In this document: positions 2,830-44,879 of the stretch, piece after piece
Layout of the letters: the number at the start of each line of letters is the position of its first letter
Numbering within the stretch: position 1 is the stretch's first letter
Assembly (NCBI GenBank): GCA_021205645.1
Contig: JAJPXE010000114.1
Span: 1 to 44,879 of the forward strand
From: Candidatus Gastranaerophilales bacterium
GTDB lineage: Bacteria; Cyanobacteriota; Vampirovibrionia; Gastranaerophilales; Gastranaerophilaceae
DNA: 44,879 bases
Direction: 5' to 3'
Notes under the pieces: generated by a model
Databases searched by the model: none
Told to the model about the DNA's origin: nothing
The model's input: the letters and a program-made list of their open reading frames with translations, nothing else
Made by a program: the position numbers and the translations under genes

Positions 2830-3275
2830 GCGACAACAAGAAACCCAGGATTTGTGAAGTGCTTGGGGTAGAAGTTCTGGAAAGGTTTAAATTCTCGTCA
2901 ACTGGATGGACGTTCGTGGTGGATGAGAACGGTAATATGCAGAGATATGACGATGGCGATTTACTTCCTTTGTGTAGCACTTTGAGCGTGTCAATCTTAA
3001 TTGATGTCATCAATGGAGCGTTGCCAGTTATTCATCTTCCACGCTGGACAGCAGAAGATGTCGAGGACGCAAAAGCGCTGCGCCGGATTTGGCCGAATGC
3101 TACAAAAGTCAGACGAGAGATAGGGAATTGGCTTCTGACGATTTATCAAGAAGAAGATGCGTGGTTTGTTACGAACAGCAGGGCGTTTTCTTCTTTGAAG
3201 CCTGACGAAACGGTTATGCTTGATGAAATTTTAGCATCGGAGGATGAGCTTATTTTTCCAGGGATGACTATGTGA
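2826..3275 (+). CDS. hypothetical protein (149 aa)
   Basis: ATGA overlap with the upstream gene and GTGA overlap with the downstream gene. Confidence 0.55.
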   Translation: MSDNKKPRICEVLGVEVLERFKFSSTGWTFVVDENGNMQRYDDGDLLPLCSTLSVSILIDVINGALPVIHLPRWTAEDVEDAKALRRIWPNATKVRREIGNWLLTIYQEEDAWFVTNSRAFSSLKPDETVMLDEILASEDELIFPGMTM

Positions 3276-3586
3276 TTGAGCATAGTGGAAACGTTCTGGA
3301 GACTTTGGGTGTAAAACTATTATTGGAGAGTGTGAGTAATTGTTGTGAATCAAGAAAAACAGAAACGCTGCCAATGGAACAGATGGTAGTAGATTTTTGC
3401 CAGGTTGTTAATAGTTGCCAAGAGTGCCCGTTTGATGCCGTTGTGCCAAATACTCATAGTTGTTGCAGCTATGCGGTGGAAAAGCCAGATGTAGCTATTC
3501 AGATAATGACTGCAACAGGGCATCTTATAGTTAGGGAGGACGGCACCTATATAGTTAGGGGGGATGGTACCTATGAAACGAGATGA
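3272..3586 (+). CDS. hypothetical Cys-rich protein (104 aa)
   Basis: GTG start overlapping the previous stop. Several Cys pairs (NCCES, SCQEC, HSCCS). Confidence 0.45.
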   Translation: MIEHSGNVLETLGVKLLLESVSNCCESRKTETLPMEQMVVDFCQVVNSCQECPFDAVVPNTHSCCSYAVEKPDVAIQIMTATGHLIVREDGTYIVRGDGTYETR

Positions 3587-4157
3587 ATGCCTGGACAGGG
3601 CCATGAAAAGTGTTTGCGGCGGGCGCGAGTTAGATTATGGCTCGCCTGAAAACAATTTTGCTGTGATTGCACAGCTTTGGGATGTGTATTTTCAGGCTAA
3701 ATGTATGAGTGATGTCTATGTGGAAATTGACTCAGATGATGTAGCCAACATGATGGTGCTGTTTAAGTTGGGGCGCGTTATATCTGGAACGGCCACCTCG
3801 GACAGCTATGTTGATATGGCCGGGTATGCTGCTTGCGCGTGTGAGCTGGCAACTTATGGAGAAAATCAGCCGGAAAAGTCTGCCAAAGAAGCGGGGTATC
3901 AGCCACATCCCATTATCGACCCGATTGACCATACGATTCAGTATAAGGGGTGGACGGGGGTTTATGATTACTCAAAAGAAGACACCATGTATGTTGGTAA
4001 GCTGTTAAGTGCGAAGGCCGGAGATTGCGTCCATTTTCATGGTTCAACTTTAAAGGAGCTTGCAGAGCATTTTGTGTCGGCCATTGAGGAATATCTTGAG
4101 GCGCGGGAAATACTGGACGGCAAAAAGAAGGACGTAAACAATGTTGTTTCAGATTAA
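3564..4157 (+). CDS. DUF6378-like domain fused to a HicB-like antitoxin-fold domain
   Basis: N-terminal half: R.LDYGSPENNFAVIAQLW...DVANMMVLFKLGRV...DSYVDMAGYAA (phage DUF6378 signature). C-terminal half: YKGWTGVYDYSKEDTMYVGKLL...VHFHGSTLKELAEHFVSAIEEYLE (HicB-like pattern). Start 3564 or 3573. Confidence 0.6.
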   Translation: MVPMKRDECLDRAMKSVCGGRELDYGSPENNFAVIAQLWDVYFQAKCMSDVYVEIDSDDVANMMVLFKLGRVISGTATSDSYVDMAGYAACACELATYGENQPEKSAKEAGYQPHPIIDPIDHTIQYKGWTGVYDYSKEDTMYVGKLLSAKAGDCVHFHGSTLKELAEHFVSAIEEYLEAREILDGKKKDVNNVVSD

Positions 4158-4314
4158 ACGTGTTGCAGATGGTAAAGTGGTTATGTGGACAGAGAATGAA
4201 GATTTCATTTATGATGCAGAAATTATCAAAGAAATGAATCGCGCAGGTTATATGGCGTATCTGGATGGTAAAATTTATCGTCCAGGACGTAAAAATAAAA
4301 AGGAGGAAGTTTGA
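4141..4314 (+). CDS. small hypothetical protein (57 aa, below ORF-track cutoff)
   Basis: ATG at 4141 overlaps the end of the previous gene. Translates MLFQIKRVADGKVVMWTENEDF...YRPGRKNKKEEV with no stops. Fills an otherwise empty gap. Confidence 0.4.
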   Translation: MLFQIKRVADGKVVMWTENEDFIYDAEIIKEMNRAGYMAYLDGKIYRPGRKNKKEEV

Positions 4315-4316
4315 TT

Positions 4317-4484
4317 GTGAAGAATTTGTTTCACAGGGAAGGTTTTTCAATTTTGGTATTTGGTCTTAATGCGATTGTTGCTGCGGTGGCGGTTTGCAGT
4401 GGTGAAAAGACTTTGGCCCTTTGTGGCATTGCGAATATGCTGTTTTGGGCTGCTGATACCTTGCATTGGGTGAATGGAGAGTGA
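4317..4484 (+). CDS. small hydrophobic protein (55 aa)
   Basis: GTG start 8 nt after an AAGGAGGAAG SD. Two hydrophobic stretches (FSILVFGLNAIVAAVAV, LALCGIANMLFWAA). Confidence 0.4.
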   Translation: MKNLFHREGFSILVFGLNAIVAAVAVCSGEKTLALCGIANMLFWAADTLHWVNGE

Positions 4485-4948: not shown

Positions 4949-6916
4949 TTGGCTAAACAAAAGAAGTTACAGCAGTACATTTTTAAGATAAACTCAACTT
5001 TGCTGGCTAGAAACAATTGGGACTATTATATCTCGTTGGAACGAGCCAGAAAAATACCCGGCATGGTTGTGTCGCTGGCAGATTCTCAAATACTCTCGTG
5101 GATAAATGAGCTGAATGGTATGGAAGATTATGACGAGAAAGCCAGAGAGGTAAAGGCGCAGATTCAGAGAATTAAGCGCCAGCCCAGCAGCCCAGAGAAT
5201 AAAATTAAGATTTCAAGTCTATATAAGCAGCTATATCAACTTCAGTTTAAAGAAGACTATGTTTGTGTGGTTATGGACAAGAAATCTGATTATAAACGAG
5301 CAAATCAGGGGTTTAAAATCAACGGGATTGAGTATAAACGGCTGATTTGTACCACAAATGGGGTGAAAACCTCCTCCGTGGTATATGTGAGTGTGCGGCT
5401 GCACCAGATTTTACGGGATAGGATTGACAATGGCAGAAATATGGAAACGCCACTCGTCCCCGCAAAACTGGGGGCTTACGAGTCCCTGGTTGCCAGCGCT
5501 TCACTCCCCGTGAGTTGGCCTAGACCACCGGATTCTAAAATTCCGGGCGGCATTATTGTGGTGAAGGATTGTGAAACGCATTTTAAAGCGGATTTAATAA
5601 ATATTGATACGAGCAAAGATGGGGCGGAGCCAACAGTTGAGTTTGCGCCTAATCAAGACGTGAAGAACAACTGCTCGGATGGCTGCTCTATGATGCTGCC
5701 GTCACTGTCGAGAAGATGGAACGGCGAGCTGAATGGGGATTTTGAGGATACACTCAGCGGGTGTAATTTACGATGCGCCTGGACAAAGGGTATGACATTC
5801 ACGTTTGATTTTATTGAGTTCGCAGAAAAAATCGTTGGAGCATCTGATGAATGCCCTGAAAAATATCTGATTACAGATGTTTGGGGGCAGCAGAGAGATA
5901 TTCGGGATGCTGAGTTGATTTTGACTGAGAGCCAGTTGAAGTTGTGGGCTTGCTATGACTCGTGGGAAGATTATTTTGAGAAATGCCTGAAGAATGGGTA
6001 TACGATACGGGTAGTTAAGACGGCCCCGCATGAGTTAGATGATGTGAGACAGACTAATTACCAATATTTGCAAGTTTTTGAACTTTCTGATGACGATATT
6101 GAAGATTTAATAGCCCCAACTGTAAATGAGATTAAGGACATTACGGGGTTAGACCCACAAAAGAGCATTGTTTATTTATGCGGGAAGGGGTTAAATGAGA
6201 AGACTGTTGCGTATGCAGACCCGTGTGCCAGGGCGATTATGGTAGATGAAAATGCGATAAATGATGCCTATATTCGCTCGAAAATCAGCAAAATGATAAG
6301 CACTCGGATACGAGAGGCTAAGATTGGGGTTCTTGATGTACATAGTAATTTTCAGATTATTTCTGGAGATTTATATGCGCTTTGCGAGAGTATGTTTGGG
6401 CTTGAGGTGTATGGGCTGCTGAAGGCTGGCGAAATTTATAGCAAGTATTGGCGAGATGAAAATGTAGAAGGCGTTTTGTGTTTTAGATCGCCCATGAGCA
6501 ATCGTTGGTCGGTGGTTCGGCAGAATATTTCTTATGATGATGAGGCTGCTTATTGGTTTAGGTATATAGATTGCTGTATGGTTGTAAATGGTTGGGATAT
6601 GATGCTTTCAAGTCTCAACGGGGCTGATATGGACGGCGATATTATATATTCAACTAATAATTTAGTTTTGATGAATAATCAAGAAAATCTTCCTCCGTTG
6701 AGTTGTGCGCAAAGTGCAGCTAAAAAAGTGATGGTTGCAGAAGATGATGTAGTTGAATCTAATTTAAATGGTTTCGGCAGTAAAATCGGACAAATTACGA
6801 ACAGAATTACGGCTATTACGAGTTTAATGGCGAATTATGAGCCAGGGAGCTTGGAATATGAAACGCTGGAGAGGAGAACCCAAATGGGGCAAAAAATTCA
6901 GCAGGATGAAATTGAT
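4949..6916 (+). CDS. YonO-like single-subunit two-barrel RNA polymerase, exon 1
   Basis: CFRSPMSNRWSVV...(39 aa)...LNGADMDGDIIYS matches the R.P...(spacer)...DxDGD catalytic-loop pattern of YonO and cellular RdRP-type polymerases. TTG start after GAGGTGGTG. The ORF runs on into the intron to a stop at 6976. Confidence 0.65.
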
Positions 6917-7254
6917 TATTATGGTCACTTTGGGCGGCAACGTTCATTGAAAAATGTGGTGAACCTACAGATGTAGGGTGTGGATTCAACGGGAAGTAGC
7001 ACTAGGAAATGAGTGTGAGTGAATCTGCTAACTGGGGACAGTTAAGTTTTGTATAGCAAAATATGCCAATCCAGTGCCAATAAATGGGTCAAACGACTAT
7101 CCCATAGGCTGTGAAATTCGGCAACAGGAGTAGGGGCGTGGTGAAATTCCACGCTGGGTGAGAACCCCTCAAATCGAAGCGCCACACTCCGCTTTTGCGG
7201 ATGAAGATATAGTCTATCCCCCTAAAAAGTATCGGGAAACCGAGGGTATTAGAG
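6917..7254 (+). mobile_element. group I intron (ORF-less) in the RNA polymerase gene
   Basis: R-like element GGTCAAACGACTATCCC (P7 half GACTAT at 7095-7100). S-like element AAGATATAGTCT (ATAGTC at 7209-7214). Frame shifts between flanking ORFs. Proposed P1 is TGAT/GTCA with U at -1 (6916) and omega-G at 7254. Boundaries are good to a few nt at best. Confidence 0.65.
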
Positions 7255-8079
7255 AAAGCCAAGGGAATTATCCCAACACCAATGCCGGTTGAGTGGTACG
7301 TTTACAGTGCAAACCGGATAAAACCGGATGATTCAGAGGAAGAAAAGGAGAAAAAACGATTAAATCAACGTATTTGTGCGCATAAAAAGCCATATTTCTT
7401 CGGCTACAATTATCAGTCGCTCAAGCGCGAATATGACCAATGCGTGGCCGAAATGGATGCAAAATTACAAAATTTATATCAAAAAACGCTACGAGAGCTG
7501 CAAAATTCGGACAATTTAACGCCCGACGAAGAAAAGGCGTTAAGTGTATGCCAGCGACAGTTGCCGCTTGACTGTTCGCCCTCAACAATGAATCGGATTT
7601 GCTGGGCGATTGAGCGTCATTTCGACAAAACAGAACTGCCGTCAGCCAGCGAGTTTGATTATTCCATATATAAGAGCGGATGTGAATACAGTGCTGAGGA
7701 CGCCGCCAGCATTAAACAGGTATGCGCAGAGTATCAAAAAAGTATTAAGTTAGCCCAAAATGAGGCGTCTGGCAATGCAAATGTCGAGCCAATTGATAAG
7801 CGGCAGCTTTTACAGTGTTTGCAGGAAAAATGCGAAAGCATCTGCCCAAACAGCACAGAGTTGTGTGAAATTTTGCTTGATTTATGTTATTCAGATGGAG
7901 CCAGCAAGGGCATTGTGTGGGAGTTGTGCGGAGATGACATAGTAGAGAACCTATTGCGGAAGACCAATTACAAAATAACATACCCAGAACGTGTAAAGTC
8001 TGGTGGGTTCTGGTGCTGCGGCGCACAATTCATTTCAAAGACTATAACACTTGATGAGGAGGTGTGTTATTTTGATTGA
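7255..8079 (+). CDS. YonO-like RNA polymerase, exon 2
   Basis: Frame is open only from 7213, right after the S element, and has no SD or start of its own before M at 7282. The junction would read ...QQDEID|KAKGIIPTPMPVEW. Confidence 0.6.
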   Translation, partial: KAKGIIPTPMPVEWYVYSANRIKPDDSEEEKEKKRLNQRICAHKKPYFFGYNYQSLKREYDQCVAEMDAKLQNLYQKTLRELQNSDNLTPDEEKALSVCQRQLPLDCSPSTMNRICWAIERHFDKTELPSASEFDYSIYKSGCEYSAEDAASIKQVCAEYQKSIKLAQNEASGNANVEPIDKRQLLQCLQEKCESICPNSTELCEILLDLCYSDGASKGIVWELCGDDIVENLLRKTNYKITYPERVKSGGFWCCGAQFISKTITLDEEVCYFD

Positions 8080-8965
8080 GTTTAAGTTTAACGAAGAATT
8101 TAAAATCAGGACTGCCGTAGAGTTGAAGAAACTGAATGGTGTTCCTGTTAGAAAGGCGATTTGGATGCTTGCGCTCTATTATACCAAGTTGTGCGGGCAT
8201 AAAAAATCAGAGGTCTACAAGGATATTGTTTGTTACATTGGCGAGAACCTACCAGGAGTGTATTATGAGCAATATATTTCGGATATTGAGCGGTGCGTCA
8301 GGAGAGCTGTTAAATATGAGTTGAAACAAGTGGATAAGATTCAGATTCGCCAGTCGGAGATGGATATTATTCAGGGGTACTCTGACAACAGGAAGCAGAA
8401 GATTACTTTTGTGCTGATTGCGTTGGCAAAGTATTTTAATGCCCTGTATAAAAATGACGCCAACTGTCTGTGGGCGAAGACCAGCGAAATCTTTAAGATG
8501 GCCCGTGTGTCTATTGCCGCCAAGGAACGGGACTTGTTTTTGGGGTATGCTTATCAGGATGGAATTTTGATTCCAAATTTGAGCATCGGGCAGAATTTGA
8601 TGATAGTTGGCGTTGTTTCTAATGCTGAGGATGACCCAGTGGTATTAGAACTAGACGGGGGCGATTATCTCGACTTGGCCTATTCCTATTTACATTATAA
8701 AACGGGGCATGGATATAAGCGGTGTCTTGAGTGTGGGCGTTGGTTTAAAATCATTAAGAAGCAGCCGGGGCGAAAGTATTGCTTTGAGCATACTCGTAAG
8801 AAGGAACTGATGGGGACGAAGGAGCGCATTTGTGTAGATTGTGGAGAGAAATTCGTGGTTAGCGCCAAGGATAATCACTCTAAATGGTGCAGTGAATGCG
8901 TAGAAAAGCATAAAGTGAATTTGCCCGAAAAGTTCAAAAATGAACAAACTGTCAAAAAATCTTGA
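8072..8965 (+). CDS. hypothetical protein with C-terminal multi-Cys zinc-ribbon cluster
   Basis: TTG at 8072 lies 9 nt after a GAGGAGG SD and overlaps the RNAP stop. C-terminus has CLECG...CFEH...CVDCG...CSEC. Confidence 0.55.
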   Translation: MIEFKFNEEFKIRTAVELKKLNGVPVRKAIWMLALYYTKLCGHKKSEVYKDIVCYIGENLPGVYYEQYISDIERCVRRAVKYELKQVDKIQIRQSEMDIIQGYSDNRKQKITFVLIALAKYFNALYKNDANCLWAKTSEIFKMARVSIAAKERDLFLGYAYQDGILIPNLSIGQNLMIVGVVSNAEDDPVVLELDGGDYLDLAYSYLHYKTGHGYKRCLECGRWFKIIKKQPGRKYCFEHTRKKELMGTKERICVDCGEKFVVSAKDNHSKWCSECVEKHKVNLPEKFKNEQTVKKS

Positions 8966-19850: not shown

Positions 19851-20039
19851 ATGAAGTTGTATGTTTGTAGAGGAAAGCGGCAAGCCAATTATTTTTTGGA
19901 CTATGGCTGCAAACTAATTCGTATTGATTGTGACAAGACAGCAAAGGGGTATCTTGTCTTTATCTTTCACTGGAATGGCGCACTTGATGCTGCGTTAAAG
20001 TCATGGGAGACAGATAAAGACACCTATTTGATTTCTTGA
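19851..20039 (+). CDS. DUF5659-like small protein (paralogue 3 of 4)
   Basis: QANYFLDYGCKLIRIDCDKTAKGYLVFIFHWNGALDAAL. AAGGAGA SD. Confidence 0.5.
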   Translation: MKLYVCRGKRQANYFLDYGCKLIRIDCDKTAKGYLVFIFHWNGALDAALKSWETDKDTYLIS

Positions 20040-20059
20040 GTTTGAAGGAGGATAAAGTT

Positions 20060-20869
20060 ATGGGAGAAGTTTGTAACATTCTTCATGAATCTGGAATCTA
20101 TTCAATTGAGTGTTTGATAAACGGTAAAAAGTACATCGGACAATCGATAGATATGAAGAAAAGAGTCATACAGCATAGATGCGATTTAAGACGACATGAC
20201 CATATGAACGAAGATTTACAGTCGGATTGGGATGAGTATGGGGAAGGAAATTTTAGTTTTGACGTATTGGAAAAATGTGAAATTTCTGAATTGGATAATA
20301 AAGAACGATTTTATATTGGTTGTTGCAAATCAAATCTTATTGAGTTTGGATATAATATTGAGGCTGGTGGAATTTGCCCTGGCCCAATGTGCGACAGAAC
20401 AAAAGAGAAACAGTCAAAAGTACAGACTGGAAAAGTCCGTACAGATGAGACAAGAAAGCGCCTTTCTGAATCTCATTTAGGAGAGAAAAATTCTATGTAT
20501 GGGAAGCATCATACAGACGAAACAAAAAAGAAAATCTCTGAAAATCGTCGTCCAGTGCGAGGCAAAGACTATCCTAATTATGGTAAGCATTTTTCTGAGG
20601 AGACGAGGGCTAAACTTAGTGCTTCTCATATTGGAAAAAACACTGGAGCAAGCCATCCTCGTCATCATTCTATCTATTGCCCAGAGTTGGATGAGTATTT
20701 TGATACAATTACTGCGGCGACACGGAAATATGGAGTTTCTGATGCACATATCAGTAGCTGCTTGTCTGGAACAAGAAAATCCGCTGGCAAACATCCCATA
20801 ACTGGAGAAAAATTACATTGGCTTGACGCCAAAACTGGTACAAACAATTTGCAACAACTTGAAAATTGA
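20060..20869 (+). CDS. free-standing GIY-YIG homing endonuclease (I-TevI-like, with NUMOD3 repeats)
   Basis: GIYSIECLINGKKYIGQS...R...H catalytic motifs. Repeated ETRKRLSESHLGEKN, DETKKKISENRR and EETRAKLSASHIGKN units. C-terminal HTH-like region. GAAGGAGGA SD. Confidence 0.85.
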   Translation: MGEVCNILHESGIYSIECLINGKKYIGQSIDMKKRVIQHRCDLRRHDHMNEDLQSDWDEYGEGNFSFDVLEKCEISELDNKERFYIGCCKSNLIEFGYNIEAGGICPGPMCDRTKEKQSKVQTGKVRTDETRKRLSESHLGEKNSMYGKHHTDETKKKISENRRPVRGKDYPNYGKHFSEETRAKLSASHIGKNTGASHPRHHSIYCPELDEYFDTITAATRKYGVSDAHISSCLSGTRKSAGKHPITGEKLHWLDAKTGTNNLQQLEN

Positions 20870-21488: not shown

Positions 21489-21796
21489 ATGGCAACACCC
21501 TACACTACTGTATACAACCGGTTCCTTCAAAAATGTACAGATTTTAATCTCGCAGAAACGGATGACAACGCCTTAAATGAGATGTTGTTTTCGTGGATGC
21601 AGAGTGCGATAGTCAACACACGCCCTTGCCAGCATGATTTATCTGACAGGGATGATGAGATAATGGAATTTACCGATACCTTGTCTGACCTTGAGATAGA
21701 GATTCTGGCAATGGGCATGGTTGACGCTTGGCTTGACCAATATTTGAACTCTACCGAAAATGTACTGCAATTCATTGGCGGCAAAGAGGAAAAATT
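21489..21796 (+). CDS. head-tail connector/adaptor-like protein, exon 1
   Basis: N-terminus TVYNRFLQKCTDFNLAE...LSDLEIEILAMGMVDAWLDQYLNSTENVLQFIGGKEEK resembles phage head-tail adaptor proteins. The ORF then reads into intron-like sequence. Confidence 0.5.
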
Positions 21797-22144
21797 AAGA
21801 AGATTAGTTCGTTGCATACGGAAACGGTGCAATGTATTTCTTCGGATAAGCTGGGAACTCCTGAGAGCCACAACGCTACAGCGGAAAGATGAAAAATGTT
21901 TATATGCGACAGCCTGAAAAGTTTGTGGATTGGACAATCAGCCGGGAAGCGGCGAATAGCTGCGCCCTCAACGACTAGAGCTGTGATGCTCGTAGGGGCA
22001 AGTGCCTCGAAGTGAAGAACTCCTAAGTTTTGTGCTGATGTATGGCACAAAATATGGTGAATGATATAGTCTATGCTTACATGAAAGTGTGAGAAAGGGT
22101 GTGAATAAACACTACCCCTTGCGCGGATTAACGCCCCGCGTGAG
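21797..22144 (+). mobile_element. group I intron (ORF-less) in connector gene
   Basis: GGACAATCAGCCGGGAAGC segment. R-like CTCAACGACTAGAG (GACTA 21973-21977). S-like TGATATAGTCTATG (TAGTC 22067-22071). Proposed P1 is AATT/GATT with U at 21796 and omega-G at 22144. Length 348 nt keeps the frame. Boundaries approximate. Confidence 0.6.
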
Positions 22145-22286: not shown

Positions 22287-22595
22287 ATGTATTTTAAATA
22301 CGGCGAAGTATCGTCTAAGCAGATAAAACAAGAGAAAGATTATTTTCAATCAGCAATTTTTAAACTTTTGCCGTACAAACAGGAAAAATACGAATACCTG
22401 GACGGATATTTTGAGTCGCTGCTGCAAAGGCTGGGCGGCTTTAATACTTTATCGGGGAATCAGCCCGTAGTTGTAACCATTATGAGTTTGCTGGAGTTTG
22501 CAAGGACAGAGAACGACTTTGTGAAGTATCGCAAGGCTGTTCTTGATGCCTGTGGGCTTGTGCAGCAGATACAGGATGGTGATTCCTATGTATGA
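22287..22595 (+). CDS. hypothetical neck-module protein (102 aa)
   Basis: ATG after TAGGCGGTG. ATGTATGA overlap with the next gene. Confidence 0.5.
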   Translation: MYFKYGEVSSKQIKQEKDYFQSAIFKLLPYKQEKYEYLDGYFESLLQRLGGFNTLSGNQPVVVTIMSLLEFARTENDFVKYRKAVLDACGLVQQIQDGDSYV

Positions 22596-31000: not shown

Positions 31001-32476
31001 TGATATATACAGTTATCAGAACGCACTTGAGGGTTCACTTCAAAGAAAAAATAGCAATACGTTCCAGTGGATAGTTCAAGATGCTGACGAGGCTCTTGTA
31101 GAGGTGACTGCGGTTCTTGGGAAACTCGGAGATATTACGATTACAAAGAATCCAATTGAAGATATATTTTCCAGTGACTACAGTTCAAAATGGTTGAAGA
31201 ACATCCAGTCCGAGATGACTAAAACTATTAACGAGCTTGCTCAGTCTATGACAAAATTATCAAAGATGGACGTTGGTACGCAGCAGTTTACTGAATTGGA
31301 AAATCGAATTTCTGAATTGCGAGTTAGACTTTCAGACTTACAGGGGCAGTTGAATAATAGCACTTCTATCGGAACTGGAAATATCGAGAGCCAGCTTAAT
31401 AAGATATTCTCTAATTTTGGAGTAAGCGCAAGCCAGGAGATTGAAAAAGTAAAATCGTCATTTAATAGTTTGAGTGATGAAGCAAAGTCTAGTCTAAACG
31501 AGTTAGAGCAAAATGTTGATGGCGTTGAGGCAGATATTAAAGCCTTAGACGATGCGTTTGAAAATTTCAAATCTGCGCAAACTTTTGACGAGAAAACTGC
31601 GGCGGCGCAAGAGCTTGCAGAGGCTATATCCAAGACAACTGCTGAAGTCAAAGTTTTAAAAACGGCGGAGGATACATTAAATTCATCACAAAGTTTGTCT
31701 ACTGATATTCAGACATGGATGGATGAAAACCAAAAGGCTGCCAAGCAATTTGGGGACAGGCTGGATGAGCTGCAAGATAAATTAAAAAATAATATTGACC
31801 CGGCTAAACTAAAAGAGTGTGCGCAAGAGTTTGAAAATATCCAAGCTGAGGCTAAAAGTGCCAATTTGGTTACAAGCGATTTTGCTAAGTCGGCGGGCAA
31901 ACTTGCCCTTCAGCTTGCTGGCCTTGATACAACTTATGAAGTATTCCAAAAAATAGTTCAGGTCGTGCGCGAAGGCATTGAGGTTGTAACCGAGCTTGAT
32001 TCTGCTATGGCACAGTTAAAGATTGTTACTGGGGCCACAGACAGTGAGATGACGCAGTTCTTAGAGGAATCTATCTCGCTGGCGAAAGAGCTTGGGCAGA
32101 GTGTCAGTGACATATTGGGGACTATTGAAACGTTCTCTCGTTTGGGATACGACCTCGAAGAAGCCTCTACATTAACTGAATTTGCCAGTATTTTATCTAA
32201 TGTAGCAGATGTTGACATTGATGATGCGACGACTGGTCTAACTTCAATTGTTAAGGCATATGGGTATGCTGCTGAGGATGCCGAGCAGGTGTCCGATATT
32301 TTAATCACAGTTGGACAAAATTACGCAATTAGCGCGGAAGAAATTATGACTGCCTTGGAGAAATCTGGTTCTGCGTTGAGCGCTACGGGACTTTCTCTGG
32401 AGGAGTCTGTTGCGTTGTTGGCGGCTGCGAATAGCTCAATTCAAGATGCCTCCAGCGTGGGCACTGCGATGAAGAC
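28077..32476 (+). CDS. tail tape measure protein, exon 1
   Basis: GGGAGGTGAG SD. About 1,466 codons of coiled-coil-like sequence ending in a TMP-core-like ...SSVGTAMKT. The ORF runs a few codons into the intron (stop at 32510). Confidence 0.75.
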
Positions 32477-33040
32477 AGGATTTTGTCTTTATGTACAGAA
32501 ATGTGCATAGTGAACATATTTAACTGCGGGTAATGGGTAAAGTCTTGCACCACAATAGCGGGGAAACCACGCTATGAAGGGACGAAAGTAGAAACAACGC
32601 AAGAATGGCATATGGCTAAAAGCCTAAGTGCTTGTACAATCCCTGTTCCGCAACTAAGCTCCCTAACGTACCCCGTGGAACACACGGTACTTGAGTCGAG
32701 GGAGAAAGTTCAACGACCATTCCCATGTAGGGGTTGCAGGGAAGAATAAAGGTGGAAACCCTGAATACTGCAACCATCAGAAGTAGGGCGCAATCGCAAA
32801 TGGCGTGGGTGAAAACCCCTTAAATCGAAAAGGTATGCTTGCTGCTCAAATAGAACGTGAGTAAGAAATGGTCTTATCTCATATGAGAATATGAGTATTA
32901 TAAAGCCAAGAATGTTAAGTAGAGGCCCACGGTAAAGTGGGGTGCCACTTTTCTTGATGCGGGTATCTATTTGTGGTACAATAAAAACAGTAATAGGCTT
33001 TGTAGTAGATGTGTGTTGCGAACACATTTAAAAATGTATG
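32477..33040 (+). mobile_element. group I intron 1 of TMP gene (ORF-less)
   Basis: R-like GTTCAACGACCATTCCC (GACCAT 32715-32720) pairs with S-like AAGAAATGGTCT (ATGGTC 32868-32873). Clearly homologous to TMP intron 2. P1 candidate is AAGAC (32472-32476) / GTCTT (32485-32489). Ends ...TATG. Boundaries are good to a few nt. Confidence 0.7.
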
Positions 33041-33415
33041 AGTTTCGGCACGAATTCGTGGAGCCACCACTGAACTAGAGGAGATGGGAGAAGAAACCGA
33101 GGGACTGGCAGATGGCCTTTCAAAATATAATGATGAAATTATGGCACTCACTGGCGTCTCTATTCTCAAAGAAGGAACAACAAACGAGTACAAAGACCTT
33201 TATGATATTTTCTATGAATTATCTCAAATTTGGGATACATTGTCTGATACCGCACAATCTCGTGTGTCGGAGATTCTTGGCGGCACAAGGCAATTAAGTG
33301 TAACTTCCAGCTTAATCAATAATTTCAGTGATGCTGAAGGAGCGCTTACAGATGCTTTGGAATCTAGTGGCACTGCACTAGCTTCCAATGAGGTGTATAT
33401 GGACACCATCGAGGC
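33041..33415 (+). CDS. tail tape measure protein, exon 2
   Basis: Frame opens at 33042 with no SD. The junction gives ...AMKT|VSARIRGATTELEEMGEETEGL, a TMP-core-like motif. Ends ...NEVYMDTIEA. Confidence 0.7.
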
Positions 33416-35688
33416 AGTGTGTTTTTTGCCTCTTTGTATAGAAATATGCAAATTAGGACACATCTAAATGCAGGTAAAGGATAAGAGCCTTGCACCATAA
33501 TAACAGGGAAACCATGTTATGACGGGGCGAAAGCAGAAACAACGCAAGGATGGCATATGGTCAAAAACCTAAGTGTTATAGTAATTCCTGTTCATGCAGC
33601 GAAATACCCTAACGTTATTCACAGACCATGTGATAGTTAGTCGAGGGTATACGTTCACAGACTATCCCCATATCGGGGCCGCAAAAATAAAATAAAGGTG
33701 GAAATCCTGAATATTGCGGCCATTAGGAGTACGGCGCAAGCAAAGGCGCGGGAGAATCCCCCATAATCGGAAAAGGTGTGCTTGCTGTTCTAAGGAACGT
33801 GAGTAAGAAATAGTCGAGTCTCATATGAGAATATGAGGGTTATTAACTTTAAATAAAGGAACTATGGTATGGAAGCAGAAATTTATGAGCAAATAATTGC
33901 AGATTATAAAAACGGCACATCTTTTAAAGAAATAGGAGAAAAATACCAATATGATGTAAAATATCTTAAAAACAAGTTGGCGCAAGACGGCTACTATATT
34001 CCAGGTAAATATTTGCGATTTACAGAAGCCGAAATTAGTTTGATAAACCAATATTATCCAGATGGAGATTTAGACGAGCTGTTCCAAAAAATTCCAAATC
34101 ATACTCCAGAGGCGATAATATTAAAGGCTAAAAAGATGGAGACTGATTCTGGGGAATATAGTAGCTTAGAGAAAATGAAGCATCTTATTTCTGGTAAACC
34201 GTATACAATGGATGAAAGCACATTTAATCCAGATGATGGAAGTTTTTGTGCAATTACGCAAGATGGGTATAAAGTTCTAATTCGTAGAACAACGTTGAAT
34301 AAAAAGAAACTCCCAGACTTTTTCAATGTAAAGAACCCGTATACAGTGGACAATATTCGGCACTATACAGAATTGAATGGAATTGAAACAGAGCTGTTGT
34401 CAAATAGTTATTTTGGGCAAAATGAAAAACTTGATTGGAAATGTGGTAGATGTGGAGTGCATTTCACAGCCTCTTGGAAGCAATTCCTACGAGGAAAACG
34501 GCTATGTGACGCTTGCACCAAAAAAGCGACCAGAGAAAAACAGCAACTTGATATGGACTATGTAATTAAGGTTTTGTCTGAATGTGGGTACATATTAAAA
34601 GAATATAATGAAGATGTGCCAATTTCTAAACAGTCTATTGTCTTGGAGGATAACGAGGGATACAAATATGAGGCAATATGGAATCATGTTTTAGACGGAA
34701 TCAAGCCGCATTGTTTTGACCCGGCAAATAAGTTTACGATTGAGAACATTAATCATTATCTTTCACGCACGGGGCGCTCCGATTACTCTTGTATCTCGGA
34801 GGTATATACTGGAAATCATTCTCCATTGGCATTTGTACATAAACCATGTGGGACAATTTTCAAGTCTTCTTTGGTTGCCATGCAGGGAAAAGAGATAGAA
34901 GGTGCGGAGGAGAGACGATGGAAAACTTGTCCAAATTGCTTTCCACGGAGAATTGAATCACTTCATGCCTCAGTCCTCAAACAGGTGTTCTTACATGAGT
35001 ATCCAGACACAGTTATAGAAGACCAGTCATGTAGAAATCCAAATAGCGGACTTCCGCTCCCAACCGACATAGTAAATCATAGGTTGAAAATTGCCGTTGA
35101 GATTCAAAGTCAATACCATGACGGAGAACGTCAGGCAATAAAAGATGCGATTAAAAGAGAGTTTTGGCTCAACAAAGGATACAAATTTTATGGCCCAGAT
35201 ATTCGTGATTATTCAGTGCTTGGTATTGTGCAAGTATTTTTTCCTAGTATTAAAGAACTGCCGACATATTTAAATTATAATTATTCGTGTAGTGCAAGTA
35301 CCAAAATTGCTGAAGATTTGTTGAATGCAGGGCTTACGATAGGTGAAGTTGCGGATGCAATGGATGTGAAATATTCTACAATCTATGACATAGTACAATC
35401 AAAACGGATTGTTCTTCCTGCTAATTATACAAGAAGGCCAAAAAACGTAAAGGCGATTGTTCAGTTGGACGAAAATGGAGAATATTTAAATACCTTTTCG
35501 TCTTTCCTGGATATAGAACGAAATGGTTATAACAGGTATTCTATACGCAAAAAACTGAAATCTGGAGAGCATCTTTCTCAAGGCTTTTATTGGATTTTTG
35601 AGAAAGATTATAAACAAGGAGTAGTAGAAATATAATTTTAAAGTTAATAACCGGCTAGACGTTGCGAATCTAGCTAAATATGAAAATG
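33416..35688 (+). mobile_element. group I intron 2 of TMP gene (carries homing endonuclease ORF)
   Basis: R-like CACAGACTATCCCC (GACTAT 33660-33665) pairs with S-like AAGAAATAGTCG (ATAGTC 33810-33815). Long stretches are near-identical to intron 1. P1 candidate is GAGGC (33411-33415) / GCCTC (33428-33432). Ends ...AAAATG (35688). Confidence 0.7.
33869..35635 (+). CDS. intron-encoded putative homing endonuclease (PD-(D/E)XK / Vsr-like core with HTH and Zn-ribbon modules)
   Basis: Sits after P7' of intron 2. Candidate nuclease core is LPLPTDIVNHRLKIAVEIQSQYHDG...KREFWLNKGYKF. Two repeated modules each end in a Cys cluster (CGRCG...CDAC and C...CPNC). HTH-like ends. Confidence 0.55.
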   Translation: MEAEIYEQIIADYKNGTSFKEIGEKYQYDVKYLKNKLAQDGYYIPGKYLRFTEAEISLINQYYPDGDLDELFQKIPNHTPEAIILKAKKMETDSGEYSSLEKMKHLISGKPYTMDESTFNPDDGSFCAITQDGYKVLIRRTTLNKKKLPDFFNVKNPYTVDNIRHYTELNGIETELLSNSYFGQNEKLDWKCGRCGVHFTASWKQFLRGKRLCDACTKKATREKQQLDMDYVIKVLSECGYILKEYNEDVPISKQSIVLEDNEGYKYEAIWNHVLDGIKPHCFDPANKFTIENINHYLSRTGRSDYSCISEVYTGNHSPLAFVHKPCGTIFKSSLVAMQGKEIEGAEERRWKTCPNCFPRRIESLHASVLKQVFLHEYPDTVIEDQSCRNPNSGLPLPTDIVNHRLKIAVEIQSQYHDGERQAIKDAIKREFWLNKGYKFYGPDIRDYSVLGIVQVFFPSIKELPTYLNYNYSCSASTKIAEDLLNAGLTIGEVADAMDVKYSTIYDIVQSKRIVLPANYTRRPKNVKAIVQLDENGEYLNTFSSFLDIERNGYNRYSIRKKLKSGEHLSQGFYWIFEKDYKQGVVEI

Positions 35689-40284: not shown

Positions 40285-40321
40285 TCTTCTTCTTGTCTGC
40301 TTTCAAGGAGATAAAAGATGG

Positions 40322-43300
40322 AACAAGTATAGCTGAGAAGGCGCTTCAGGCTTTTAGTACAACGATTGGCAAGGCCAAAGATGCAGAAGTTGATTTTGCC
40401 TCTGGCTTTAGCACTGGTAGTATTGTAAGTTGGGGGACTGCTATTGTTGCCATTATTGCGGCTGTGGTGGTTCAGTATCAACAATATAAACAATCTCTCC
40501 TTGAGGCAGTGCAGGCCGCTGAAGAATCTTTAACTTCTTGGAATGAACAAAACGATTCTCTTGAAGAGTACAAAGAACGTGTTGAGGAACTGAGAACTTC
40601 ATTAGACTCCGGCAATCTCACTGAGGAAGAAGCTTACGATGCTAAGACTGAACTGCTTGAGATTCAAGATGCGCTAAGTGAATCTTATGGAGTTTCTGCC
40701 GACGCACTAAACTTGTTAAACGGTGAGATGAAAACTCAGCTTGAATTAATAGATAGCTTGGGTGTAGCCGAGGCTAATCGAGAATTGACAGCAAATAAAG
40801 AAGGTATTGACGAGGCAACTAAGCAAATGGAGACGTTGCGTAACTACTTCGCAGATGTTGACGCAATGGATGCAGAGACTTTAGATGCAGTACAAAAAAT
40901 TGTAGACAAGTACGACGATTTGTCTTTACTCCAGAATGAGAATGGGACATATAGAATAACATTTACTGGAGATGCTACCCAAGCCACAGAGACTATGGAT
41001 GCTTTGGCTATAGACCTTCGTGCATTAGAAGACGACGTTGGAGAAAACGCCATTCTCGACTCGCTTCTTAGTTATACGTCCGATTCTTACAACGCCGCGA
41101 AAGAAGTTTTGGATACCTATCAGAGCGTTTATGATGAAGCTTGGCTTGCAAAGTTAGTCACCGACACTTCCAAGGTTGCGGACAATCTTTCCGAGGGGCT
41201 TACGCTCCCAGAAGGAGTTACTACTTATTCAGACCTTTACGAGAAATATGCTGAAGCTGTTGAGGACTACAATGAAGCTCTTGAAGATGGAGACGCTTCT
41301 AAAATTAAGGGAGCTAAAGACCAGTTTGACGCTGTAGATACTGTTGTCCAAGACCTGATGGGCGACGACAACATGGGCGGCTACGGTGATTTGTTCAACG
41401 AGATAGCCGACAGCCTTGATACTGCTTCGATTGCCGCACAAGATTTCAACAACGCTTTAAGCGGGGATTCTTTGCAAAGTGCCATAAGTGAAATTGATGG
41501 CTGGAGCGCTGATGAATTAAGCAATCAAATTTTCGACTTAGCTAATGCCAGCAATTCCTTAGTTGACATCTGGAGTTGGGGCGGAGATGAAGTATCCGGT
41601 TCGCTAGTTCAAATTATGGATGCGGCAGAAGAAGCCGGGGTCGTTACCAGTGAAAATGGGCAGTATACAGAGGAGCAAATCAACACGGTTATCAGTCTCC
41701 TTGAATCTCTCGGCTATATTACATCCGATGTTATTGAAAGCTCTGCTCTCTCAGTCGATGACCTTACCACAGCTTACGCTTCTGCCGAAGAAACAGTTGA
41801 GGGCCTAACAACAGCAATGAGCGAATCGGCTTCTGCCACTGGGCTTTCAGCGGACTCAATTAGCTTAGTAGAATCGGCCTTTGAGGGGCTGGACGACTAC
41901 GACGCTGCCGCACTGTTTGAGACAACTGCCAATGGCGTACATTTAAATAGAGAAGAATTAGAGCGGCTGAATGAAGAATACAGAGAGCAAGAGGCTGCAA
42001 AGTATTCAGATACGCTGGCAGACTTGAATGAGCAGTTATATGACGCACAGGCAGCCCTTGAAGCGGCTGGTGATGACCAAGAGGCGTATAATGCGGCGCT
42101 GAGTGACATTTCTTCGATTGAAACGCAAATTCAAGAAGTGCAGTTGTTGCAAGCACAATATGAAGGGCTTACTTCGGCCTACAATGATTTTGTGAATGCA
42201 CAAAGCGCGTCCGATGAACGTGATGCGTATGCAAACATTGGCGACAGTTATGAGGATTTAAATGACCTCATTAACGCCGGATGGGTCGGGGACTCAGAGA
42301 TTACAGAGTATCTTGATTTGTTGATTGCCGCCGATAAACGTACACAGGATAATTATGAAGACTGGAAACTCTTAACAAAAACTATCGAGGGAACCAATTA
42401 CAGCCTGATGGATTTCTTTCAATATGATGATGACTCTGGAGATTTGACTGTAAACGGGCTTGCGAACTTTTTGGACTCTCTGGATGCGTTGTTCGGAGAC
42501 GATATTATTAATATGGCCGAGGATGGCAGCTTCGCGCTTGACCTAACGGGAGAAAAGATTACAGAGGTTGCCGAGGGGCTTGGAACAACCGAGGAATTTC
42601 TTGAGTTAGTCGGTAAGGCCCTTATTGACGCGGGCATTGACGTAAAATTCGACGATGCCGCCGAGAGTTCGTCCACTCTTGCAGATGAAGTTCAGGAAGT
42701 GCAGACAGCTATCGCAGAGACGGCAGATACTGTCCAGGATGCTACTGATTCGTTGCGTGAAATGGGAGAGCTTGACGGCTTTACTTACAACCTCGATACA
42801 GACCTTGAGGGCATTACTGAGCAATTAACTGCCGCCAAAGAAGCCTTGTTGGATGAAAACGGTGAGATTAAGTTTGAAGCGGATACAGATGAGTATCAAG
42901 ACGCTATAACTATTCTTACTGCCCTTATACAAAAACAGCAAGAGCTTGAGAATGCAGACCGCGCTATTGTGCAAGTTGATGTTTCTGAAGCCAGCAGTGA
43001 TGTTGGAGAATTGGCGCGAGATATTCAAACACTCCAGGGCCAGCTTGATAATTATGAGGCCAATCTTAATATTGGTGCCGACACTTCTGATGCAGAAGAA
43101 CGTATCATTCAATATGTTGAAGAAGTTCAGACGCGGCTTGAAAACCTTGACGAGCAAACGGTAATAGACCTTGGGCTTGACGATGAGGATTTCCAGGCGG
43201 CACTTTCTAATGTAGCTAATACAGATATTGAAGCTGGCGCGACAGTTTCTCAGGAAGATTTAGATACTATCCAGGGCAAAATTGATGGAATCAGTGAAGA

Positions 43301-44487
43301 AGCACTAATTTCAGTTGGGCTGGCTGAAGACTCTGCAACAGCAGAGGAAACGCTAGAAGATATCCAAACTACCGTTGAGACGTTAAATGCTACACCAGAT
43401 GTTTCTATCACAGTTACAGTGACGACAAATGGGGCAGAAGAACTCGATAGTGTTCGCGCCGGATTGGAGTCCGTATCTGAATTTAGCGAAACGCAACAAA
43501 CTGCAAGCGGCGTTGTCGAATGGGCAAATGACGCCGGTGAAGTTGAAGAATATGCAGAGGTAGAGAAACAATCCAGCGGCACAGTTGCATGGGTGAATGA
43601 TGCCGCTTTGATAAATGCGTATATCAATCAAATGAAGTATGCCAGTGGCACAGTTGTTTGGTCGAATGATATTTCAAAGGTTAGGACTAGCTTTACTGCC
43701 ACCGGAACCGTGAAGTGGAATAACGCAAGCTCATATCTTGGAACTGCTCATGCGGCTGGTACGGCGGCGGCAAGGGGGAACTGGGGGCTTCCTGAAGACG
43801 AGGAGAATGTTCTCGTGGGGGAGGTAGCACCAGAACTTGTAGTTGACGTTAATTCTGGCCGGTATTATACCGTAGGAAACGATGGGGCAGAATTTGTAAA
43901 CCTACCAAGGAATTCGATCGTGTTCAACCACAAGCAAACCGAGGAAATATTACGTTATGGGCATATTGATTCGCGTGGTCATGCACTGGTTGAAGGAACT
44001 GCTTTGTATAGCGCCTCTGGAAGTTTGCACACAAGTACAAGCAGCACATCCAGTGCGAGTAAAAAATCAAGTAGCTCCAGTAGCAGTAGCTCAAAATCCA
44101 GTTCCAGTTCCAGCTCTAGCAGTTCTTCAAGCTCCAAGAAGTCTAGCAGCTCAAGCAGTTCGTCCTCGGCGGCGGCAGAGGCCGAAATTTATGACTGGAT
44201 AAGTGTTCTCCTTGATAGAATTGAAGCCCAAATTGAGTCTCTTGACCGTACTGCATCGAGCGCATACAAGAACTCTACAACGCGGCTAAATGCAACTCGA
44301 AGTGAAATTTCTGCGATTACGAATGAGATTGCTACACAACAATCTGCGTATGATTATTATATGCAGAAAGCTAATTCGGTTGGCCTGTCGAGCTATTACA
44401 AAAACCTCGTACAAAATGGCGACATTAAGATAACAGAAGTCTCAAGTGAAAGTACACAGGAAAAGATAGATGAGTATACCGAATGGT
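40322..44487 (+). CDS. tail tape measure protein, exon 4 (both ends approximate)
   Basis: Open frame from 40278 with no usable in-frame start. Hydrophobic segment WGTAIVAIIAAVVV followed by about 1,380 codons of acidic coiled-coil. Reads ...KIDEYTEW then TGA (44487-44489) at the start of intron-like sequence. Confidence 0.6.
44031..44170 (+). repeat. poly-Ser/Lys low-complexity tract within TMP exon 4
   Basis: TSTSSTSSASKKSSSSSSSSSKSSSSSSSSSSSSSKKSSSSSSSSS, encoded by mixed AGC/AGT/TCN codons. Confidence 0.8.
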
Positions 44488-44879
44488 GAATTTTTTTGTG
44501 CCCCGTTGCCTATTGTTAGGTGACGGTATTCTATTTAATTGCTGGAATATCCTAAAATTAACCAAACTACAGCGTGAGGATGAAATAAGCCTGGGCGCGA
44601 ATGTTGCGAAAGCAGAAAAAATTGGTTAAATAAGTACATGAGTAAAATCTAAATGCTTATGGGAGAAACGTCTGTGAGAGCAGGCGCTTTTTTTGTGCCC
44701 AAAATGGACAATCAGCAGCGAAGCTTCGAACAGAAGAACGTTCAACGACTATCCCTGAGATGGGAGTAGGGCCGCAAGCGGTTGGCGGCTCGAAAAGGTA
44801 GACTATGTAAATTTGATTTTATTGGCGTTATATTGCGTTACAATAAAAAGGATACGTTTATGTTAGTAGAGAATCAATA
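44488..44879 (+). mobile_element. group I intron 4 of TMP gene (5' part; runs off the window)
   Basis: TTTTTTTGTGCCC start resembles the other TMP introns. GCGAAAGCAGAAAAAATTGG and TGGACAATCAGCAGCGAAGC segments. R-like GTTCAACGACTATCCC (44741-44756). No S partner before the window end. Confidence 0.55.

Follow-up and report, generated by a model that had tools for sequence, protein, structure and literature searches.

The DNA analysed here (the window) is a whole phage contig of 44,879 nucleotides (nt), found in an assembly of a Candidatus Gastranaerophilales bacterium (GCA_021205645.1, contig JAJPXE010000114.1). On its forward strand lie an open reading frame (ORF1) of 675 amino acids (aa) at 4949-6976, which has a TTG start and is preceded by the purine run GAGGTGGTGGTG (ORF list), and a second reading frame (ORF2), which extends from 7255 to a stop codon at 8079 and has its first ATG at 7282. 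The stretch 4949-8079 is very probably one gene, encoding a 930-aa single-subunit two-barrel RNA polymerase of the YonO family and split after the Asp656 codon by a 338-nt group I intron of the IA type; the correct gene model would be this single 930-aa polymerase and not two proteins of 675 and 265 aa. Coordinates of the features are collected in Table 1.

Gene continuity and the polymerase

The two exons are in different frames (4949 mod 3 = 2, 7255 mod 3 = 1), and joining 6916 to 7255 yields the 930-aa product proposed in a preliminary description of the sequence. The nucleotide junction expected after splicing is ...GAAATTGAT/AAAGCCAAG... (a slash within a sequence marks the insertion point). 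In an alignment with 14 uninterrupted homologues, the protein joint QQDEID/KAKGIIPTPMP stands opposite QQ[ER]EID K[AV]KGI[IL]P.PMP with zero indel, the last codon of exon 1 being that of the invariant D656. A search with the joined sequence in a collection of 5.8 billion proteins revealed approximately 120 proteins of 928-943 aa, with 59-67% identity and a query coverage of 99-100%; among the 120 matches listed, only ORF1 of the window itself and one 827-aa protein fell outside this length range. As nearly all of the listed homologues have this length, most close homologues represent the empty intron site. Both ORFs are also covered by one protein family, PHROG 8308 (847 positions), in which ORF1 corresponds to positions 61-640 and ORF2 to positions 662-824. 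No Shine-Dalgarno-like purine run is present upstream of ATG 7282 (CCCAACACCAATG), as had been noted before, and this codon, which is not a start codon, encodes the internal Met that the homologues conserve in their PMP motif.

The R-x-P and DxDGD arrangement reported earlier is present in ORF1 as FRSPMSNRWSVV (aa 512-523) and NGADMDGDIIYS (aa 557-568); the spacer between the two segments is 33 aa, not 39 aa as first counted. Homology stops 88 codons past NGADMDGDIIYS and the stop codon of ORF1 lies 107 codons past it, in place of the break previously estimated at about 60 codons after the motif. R-x-P and DxDxD are the signatures listed for all two-barrel polymerases by Ruprich-Robert and Thuriaux (PMC2919709), and both are included in the set of residues that are invariant in our alignment of 108 sequences (A2), namely K173, Y177, D244, G245, K280, G281, K331, Y371, R513, P515, D560, D562, D564, G614, N618, R643, D656, and K659. 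The invariant D244-G245, K280-G281 and K331 are candidates for the Asp and two Lys expected of a second, beta-like barrel (D837, K979 and K987 in Rpb2), and the sDG.G...R...KG segment aligns with RDR2 and QDE-1.

In BLASTP, the protein matches YonO of the Bacillus prophage SPbeta with E 1e-31 and 29% identity over 461 aa (about aa 173-623), RSPMSN standing opposite RSPHLF and DMDGD opposite DNDGD. Matches in tblastn included yonO of SPBc2 (E 4e-25) and all SPbeta-like phages, some records of which are annotated 'yonO: DNA-directed RNA polymerase'; closer tblastn matches (approximately 36-37% identity) were found in Clostridium phage c-st and in Enterocloster phages. ORF1 scores 23.4 bits with the Pfam family of RNA-dependent RNA polymerases (RdRP, PF05183), against a gathering threshold of 23.8, and homologues with 60-63% identity score 45-54 bits, above this threshold. 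An exhaustive HMMER scan at E <= 1e-3 revealed 1245 clusters at 50% identity. Searches of PDB sequences with phmmer (ORF1) and with a shallow profile (A1) gave noise only; the deep A2 profile alone reached plant RDR 7w82 (2.3e-5), RDR2 7eu0, and QDE-1 2j7n (6.6e-4), the DMDGD motif being aligned with DLDGD of plant RDR.

The AlphaFold model, built with 108 diverse sequences, has a predicted local distance difference test score (pLDDT) of 94.9 and a predicted template modelling score (pTM) of 0.91; an earlier run on 25 close homologues (pLDDT 55.6) was discarded. The best Foldseek matches were maize RDR2 (3.9e-18) and QDE-1 (7.5e-16), and all RDR2 and QDE-1 matches spanned E 3.9e-18 to 1e-13, with template modelling (TM) scores of 0.37-0.51 (0.50 for Arabidopsis RDR2) and approximately 900 aligned columns. 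These were followed by the single-chain polymerases of Thermus phages P74-26 and P23-45 (approximately 1e-5) and, weakly, by multisubunit RNA polymerases; in a structure search of BFVD, phage 'RdRP' proteins came at the top. Homology to two-barrel polymerases extends far beyond the DxDGD motif, and the protein is supported as a YonO-like RdRP-fold two-barrel polymerase at the sequence, profile and fold levels, as the preliminary description had claimed. By analogy with YonO, the enzyme is presumably a DNA-dependent RNA polymerase. In the model, the intron insertion point is at the C-terminal end of a continuous helix (aa 635-659), which bears the invariant R643, D656, and K659, and falls between the latter two.

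Structure and relatives of the intron

The R (GACTAT, 7095) and S (AAGATATAGTC, 7204) elements seen earlier in the 338-nt interval are indeed there, and AACGACUA and GAAGAUAUAGUC equal the consensus of the Rfam group I intron model RF00028 (guanosine-binding P7 and J8/7 elements), the P7 strands pairing as GACUA/UAGUC. The RF00028 alignment spans the intron from end to end and takes 6916 as the splice-site U of P1. The wobble pair at the 5' splice site is U6916·G6924, and the same U·G can be read in related introns of the loci L003 and L023; the terminal G7254 directly precedes exon 2. P7.1 and P7.2 between P7 and the 3' strand of P3 are a hallmark of subgroup IA. The intron is assigned to this subgroup (IA2-like) from these two elements, the finer class following the Michel-Westhof scheme and not a classifier. 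The P9 element UAUCGGGAAACCGAGGGUA also occurs in L008, L019, L020, L023, L028, L054-L058, and L081.

Two extra covarying hairpins sit between the 5' strand of P3 and the conserved GCUAA joiner before P4. In this lineage of introns (seen also in L003-L028, L054, and L081), the second of them has either a short form of 10-17 nt or a long form of approximately 45-50 nt, the loop of which, A(G/A)(G/U)AAAUG, is conserved; the long form is common to L003, L004, L015, L022, L054, and L081. Pairing of GAGUGUG (7011-7017) with CACACUC was considered for P3 and rejected, as the relatives show a distal hairpin of the second extra arm in this place and P3 is formed by UGUGGUG/CGCCACA. P3.1 is among the optional pairings of group I introns (PMC3873408); no description of the exact arrangement of two hairpins after the P3 5' strand was found in the literature searched, and the ribozyme lineage that bears it may represent a structural variant of subgroup IA that has yet to be described.

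Covariation was analysed in a core alignment of 140 columns and 13 distinct introns, built by hand from sequence anchors and left ungapped by MAFFT. Standard pairs are formed by 99.2% of the 492 cells, compared to 75.5% in shuffles and 36-49% with slid 3' partners. Changes on both sides were found in 21 of the 38 pairs, a count to which the invariant P7 contributes no information and in which P4 is biased by the placement of its 3' strand partly by complementarity. None of the 500 shuffles reached any observed measure, kinship among the sequences inflating these shuffle statistics. The fit, consisting of the exact junction relative to 14 homologues and the covarying helices, is beyond chance.

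Related introns occur both at the same site and in other genes. A megablast search yielded a 50-nt match to Lactobacillus phage 3-521, located between two annotated terminase coding sequences (CDSs), i.e., in a terminase intron, and just downstream of an annotated homing-endonuclease CDS. A pattern compiled from three conserved blocks retrieved 22 loci from IMG/VR, approximately nine of them in YonO-like genes. The Enterocloster phage genes are split at the same codon boundary as the polymerase gene of the window (QQNELD/KLKGII) by insertions of 471-1131 nt, the ends of which resemble those of the window intron. Among the IMG/VR loci found with the protein, L054, L055, and L058 are closest to the window (69-70% identity in exon 1); they have an intron of approximately 1028 nt exactly at 656/657 with the same 5' and 3' ribozyme halves and a GIY-YIG plus NUMOD3 ORF, which in L054 comprises 228 aa and also has a helix-turn-helix domain. 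L056 has a different, compact group I intron of 230 nt at 656/657 (L056 4969-5198). Since the closest relatives combine the same ribozyme and the same site with a GIY-YIG gene, the window intron is best read, by this comparison of sequences, as a decayed mobile intron, descended from a copy with an endonuclease gene and now without it.

Table 1. Features of the polymerase locus and other elements of the 44,879-nt phage contig
Feature	Position	Strand	Evidence or remarks
Exon 1 of the YonO-like RNA polymerase gene	4949..6916	+	codons 1-656; collinear with aa 1-656 of uninterrupted homologues
R-x-P signature of beta'-like double-psi beta-barrel, codons R513-S514-P515	6485..6493	+	R513 and P515 invariant in the 108-sequence alignment A2
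DxDGD metal-binding motif, codons D560-M-D562-G-D564	6626..6640	+	D560, D562, and D564 invariant in A2
P1: 5' exon AUUGAU (6911-6916) with internal guide GUCACU (6924-6929)	6911..6929	+	Rfam alignment, RNAfold
Group I intron, 338 nt, without ORF, IA-type; last base terminal G (omega G)	6917..7254	+	exact junction, Rfam RF00028 alignment, family covariation, same-site relatives
P2 hairpin with GCAA (GNRA) tetraloop	6931..6946	+	RNAfold; GNRA-type capped hairpin here in many relatives
P3 5' strand UGUGGUG, partner 7180-7186	6955..6961	+	7 pairs, 100% paired in 13 introns, 3 changed on both sides
Extra hairpin (P3.1-like) CCUAC-AGAU-GUAGG after P3 5' strand	6964..6977	+	4 of 5 pairs changed on both sides
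Second extra arm (P3.2-like): basal stem GGAUUC/GAAUCU, distal hairpin with AGGAAAUG loop	6982..7026	+	4 of 4 basal pairs changed on both sides
P4 (7031-7036 with 7070-7075) around P5 (7047-7051 with 7057-7061)	7031..7075	+	Rfam alignment; P4 covaries
P6 GCC/GGU	7076..7089	+	2 of 3 pairs changed on both sides
P7 5' strand GACUA (R element), partner 7210-7214	7095..7099	+	invariant in the family, equals Rfam consensus; no covariation
P7.1 (7100-7129, inserted hairpin 7108-7122) and P7.2 (core 7136-7154, loop UGAAAUU, GGG/CCC extension)	7100..7170	+	covariation helices 7 and 8; RNAfold
P3 3' strand CGCCACA	7180..7186	+	covariation helix 1
P8 hairpin UCCGC-UUUU-GCGGA	7188..7201	+	Rfam, RNAfold; sequence-variable hairpin here in every relative
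J8/7 and P7 3' strand AAGAUAUAGUC (S element)	7204..7214	+	Rfam alignment
P9: CCCU/AGGG around CGG-GAAA-CCG	7220..7246	+	RNAfold
Exon 2 of the polymerase gene	7255..8079	+	codons 657-930 plus stop; collinear with the C-terminal third of homologues
Conserved downstream partner gene, not in intron	8054..8965	+	overlaps the end of the polymerase gene; homologue of CST177 of phage c-st, E 9e-14
Terminase large subunit ORF, 1022 aa	11765-14833	+	Pfam Hom_end PF05204 at aa 290-368, weak LAGLIDADG_3 match
Free-standing GIY-YIG homing-endonuclease ORF	20036-20869	+	phrog_314, E 9e-36
Second group I intron	approx. 21757-22093	+	RF00028 35.5 bits, E 4.6e-7 (local scan); between ORF 21489-21917 and ORF 22287-22595
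Third group I intron	approx. 32472-32895	+	27.5 bits
Fourth group I intron	approx. 33406-33837	+	40.6 bits
Fifth group I intron	approx. 44479-44866	+	47 bits, E 7.5e-11; follows ORF 40293-44489 (1398 aa) directly, near the contig end

Splicing, role of the polymerase, and alternative readings

From the intact core, we infer splicing by the two-step guanosine-initiated pathway. The pre-mRNA would fold into the P1-P9 ribozyme, an exogenous guanosine would attack after U6916, held as the U·G wobble in P1, and the freed 3'-OH of exon 1 would then attack after the terminal G7254; ligation of the exons would restore the ...QQDEID-KAKGII... frame, making the full-length polymerase translatable. The full-length protein needs splicing. 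The polymerase gene is located directly upstream of protease, terminase, portal and tape-measure genes of the same strand, and an early-looking block (Ant-type anti-repressor, dUTPase) is on its other side. SPbeta YonO transcribes the late genes (operon) (PMC5467207); by this analogy, and given the location of the gene just upstream of the morphogenesis module, transcription of late (morphogenesis) genes by the polymerase of the window is plausible, in which case late transcription would depend on splicing, as suggested in the preliminary description.

Several observations weigh against one gene with a working group I intron. At the Rfam gathering threshold, the whole window gave no match, and in a local scan the intron scored only 18.7 bits (E = 0.029) with RF00028, compared to the threshold of 50; the proposed check with a covariance model supported the intron by an end-to-end alignment but not by score. 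A scan of six related loci with Rfam at E <= 0.1 found nothing, even in the curated intron of Lactobacillus phage 3-521. Because this intron was missed and scores of 27.5-47 bits, likewise below the threshold, were obtained for the other four introns of the contig, RF00028 at its gathering threshold is insensitive for this intron lineage, and the absence of an Rfam match is uninformative. P10, in which the guide would pair with exon 2, is weak. No Pfam match at E <= 0.01 was obtained with the joined 930-aa protein, and its template may, to judge from the sequence, be DNA or RNA. The intron starts with TAT, whereas its relatives have an in-frame TAA or TGA. Because of this replacement, ribosomes could enter the ribozyme: in unspliced RNA, translation runs 19 codons through P1, P2, and the 5' strand of P3 into the first extra hairpin, within which lies UAG 6974-6976, the stop codon of ORF1. 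Such read-through might disturb the folding of the intron. Finally, splicing itself is a prediction from sequence.

The same TAT start would agree with a gene that is truly split, the interval being a dead ribozyme remnant and the polymerase consisting of two assembling polypeptides (675 aa, and 265 aa from ATG 7282). ORF1 includes both predicted barrels and all catalytic residues, and in the records of c-st (CST179, CST178) and of the Enterocloster phages each half has a CDS of its own. Nevertheless, we consider a two-polypeptide enzyme very unlikely. Translation from ATG 7282 would begin without a Shine-Dalgarno sequence at the internal Met of the PMP motif, with the loss of nine conserved upstream codons (KAKGIIPTP), and the insertion, at the end of the confidently modelled helix aa 635-659, parts the invariant D656 from the invariant K659. 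Moreover, the ribozyme has kept all its core helices, the P7 that binds guanosine, J8/7, the U·G pair of the splice site, and the terminal G, which argues against a dead remnant. The intein-type homing-endonuclease domain in the terminase of the contig shows that other selfish elements are present; still, an intein, a group II intron, translational bypass, or an assembly or frameshift artefact in place of the group I intron is effectively refuted. Unlike an intein, the 338 nt do not continue the frame of exon 1 and have stops in all frames; they are far too long for a bypass and have a covarying ribozyme fold; only the group I model gave a credible Rfam match in this stretch; and an artefact is contradicted by same-site insertions in independent assemblies and isolated phages.

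If the gene is interrupted by a group I intron, as we prefer to read it, the intron might act as a regulatory gate, slow or conditional splicing delaying the polymerase and thus timing late transcription. The full-length enzyme is impossible without splicing, the gene is located at the boundary of early and morphogenesis genes, and ribosomes that read 19 codons into the ribozyme could tie the efficiency of splicing to translation. However, such a gate is unlikely, because intron-less alleles predominate (nearly all of the 120 closest homologues listed are uninterrupted, so that the gate would be dispensable), the copies in sister phages carry a homing endonuclease, a signature of selfish spread, and the contig is rich in selfish elements, at least four more introns and a probable intein being scattered in its structural genes. 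A gate is also disfavoured by the mostly neutral, passenger-like nature of the classic group I introns of phages.

Insertion sites in the family, neighbouring elements, and known systems

Genes of the polymerase family are split at two sites, A (aa 562) and B (aa 656). Junctions at site A are inside the catalytic DxDGD motif (NGSDFD/GDAIYS in Enterocloster phage CB457P1 and NGMDMD/GDAVIS in c-st), and the insertions there bear R and S elements and a GAAA-capped P9. Unannotated group I introns were identified in Clostridium phage c-st (L002, AP008983.1, approximately 3172-3488), in Enterocloster phage CB457P1 (L003, 1748-2275 and 2558-3061), and also in L004 and L005; in the records examined, the exons of the c-st and Enterocloster genes appear as individual proteins labelled hypothetical or 'N-ter only', with no intron annotation. 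Among the best 150 cluster representatives, as read from the table, approximately 10 proteins end at aa 652-657 and approximately 20 at aa 558-565. Among the families matched by 4949-6976 and 7282-8079, phrog_25339, with 558 positions, coincides exactly with aa 1-562, and phrog_35857 covers the portion after site A; both look like collections of exon fragments from intron-split polymerase genes. In L091, an extra break of approximately 350 nt near aa 354-370 (L091 approximately 4053-4400) may be a third insertion site. The protein-based search for loci used the peptide pattern EIDK[AV]KG, which spans site B; the interrupted fraction obtained (9 of 67) is biased and was not used as a frequency.

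We lean, with some reserve, towards YonO-family genes being a recurrent and unreported homing target, in which group I introns of several lineages, with or without GIY-YIG genes, repeatedly occupy the DxD/GD and ID/K hot spots in gut phages and clostridial phages. Introns that went unannotated would then have given rise to many artefactual database entries, candidates being the YonO homologues of c-st described as 'N-terminal only' and 'C-terminal only', the hypothetical proteins that start Enterocloster phage genomes, PHROG 25339 and PHROG 35857, and the 'RdRP' proteins of approximately 560 and 640 aa. The correction of gene models would extend to c-st, to Enterocloster phages CB457P1, CB473P1, and CB473P3, and to protein-family databases in which the fragments are stored. 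YonO-type polymerases would join DNA polymerases, ribonucleotide reductases, terminases, and multisubunit RNA polymerase subunits as habitual targets of homing introns, and the insertion points would mark the most constrained residues of a poorly studied enzyme family, DxD/GD and D656/K659 at the end of the long helix. The introns might also serve phage-phage competition for the transcription machinery.

The 45 kb of the contig bear no fewer than five group I introns, together with one probable intein and a free-standing GIY-YIG gene, a load of selfish elements that is unusual for a phage outside crAss-like groups. ORF 21489-21917, which precedes the second intron, matches phrog_3853, the profile being covered only partly. 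The third and fourth introns appear to split the tape-measure gene, which is in at least three pieces: 28077-32510 matches positions 603-776 of phrog_4211 and 33084-33467 matches positions 789-883. The next ORF after these pieces, 33869-35635, has an HNH endonuclease-like region. The downstream exon of the fifth intron is probably cut off by the contig end, and the terminase large subunit contains a probable intein.

The gene 8054-8965, immediately downstream of the polymerase gene, had a weak PHROG match to HNH proteins; its reading as a homing endonuclease was rejected, as the gene is a conserved neighbour homologous to CST177 and lacks a Pfam nuclease domain. In the Enterocloster phages, an ORF is annotated at the equivalent place downstream of the polymerase genes, a correspondence of position only, the sequences not having been compared. 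A C-x2-C...KYC motif in the product resembles the extreme C-terminus of YonO, with E of only 0.49.

Group I introns in essential phage genes, including those for RNA polymerase subunits, are well known, and the intron described here belongs to this familiar phenomenon; no report of its host gene family, the YonO-type polymerase genes, as an intron target was found in the literature searched. The result is useful for annotation and leaves the view of phage transcription and of introns unchanged.

The polymerase is most readily compared to YonO of SPbeta (Forrest et al., 2017; PMC5467207), with which it shares sequence homology, the R-x-P and DxDGD motifs, a probable pair of barrels in one chain, and a phage gene located upstream of late or structural genes. 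It differs in length (930 aa, and 839 aa in YonO), and the termini are unrelated at the BLAST level, the central part (approximately aa 173-623) being alignable. yonO was aligned as one continuous stretch with no intron in it; site B of the window gene is beyond the BLAST-alignable part. The Zn-ribbon-like C-terminus of YonO may correspond here, by a weak resemblance, to the separate gene 8054-8965, the product of which may be an accessory or Zn-ribbon module that became detached from the polymerase. Eukaryotic cellular RdRPs (QDE-1, RDR2; PF05183) are the best structural matches, with the first barrel and the DxDGD segment included in the profile matches; unlike them, with approximately 12% identity, the protein of the window is encoded in a phage context and, by analogy with YonO, its template is probably DNA.

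Phage introns of subgroup IA2 include those of T4 td, nrdB, and nrdD, Twort orf142, the SPO1 DNA polymerase gene, and the terminase gene of Lactobacillus phage. The window intron resembles them in having a P1-P9 core with P7.1 and P7.2, consensus R and S elements, and GNRA-capped P2 and P9, in its location at a strongly conserved codon within an essential gene, and in the existence of related copies with a GIY-YIG endonuclease, but it has two extra covarying hairpins, no ORF, and no in-frame stop at its start. A parallel in the type of target is the mobile intron in the gene for a beta-like RNA polymerase subunit of phage 201phi2-1 (gp273/274; PMC2919709). In this jumbo phage, as here, a self-splicing mobile intron would reside in a phage gene for a two-barrel RNA polymerase; however, the targets in jumbo phages are separate genes for beta- and beta'-like subunits of multisubunit enzymes, whereas the window gene encodes a single-chain enzyme of the RdRP fold and is interrupted after an invariant Asp, its relatives being interrupted inside DxD/GD.

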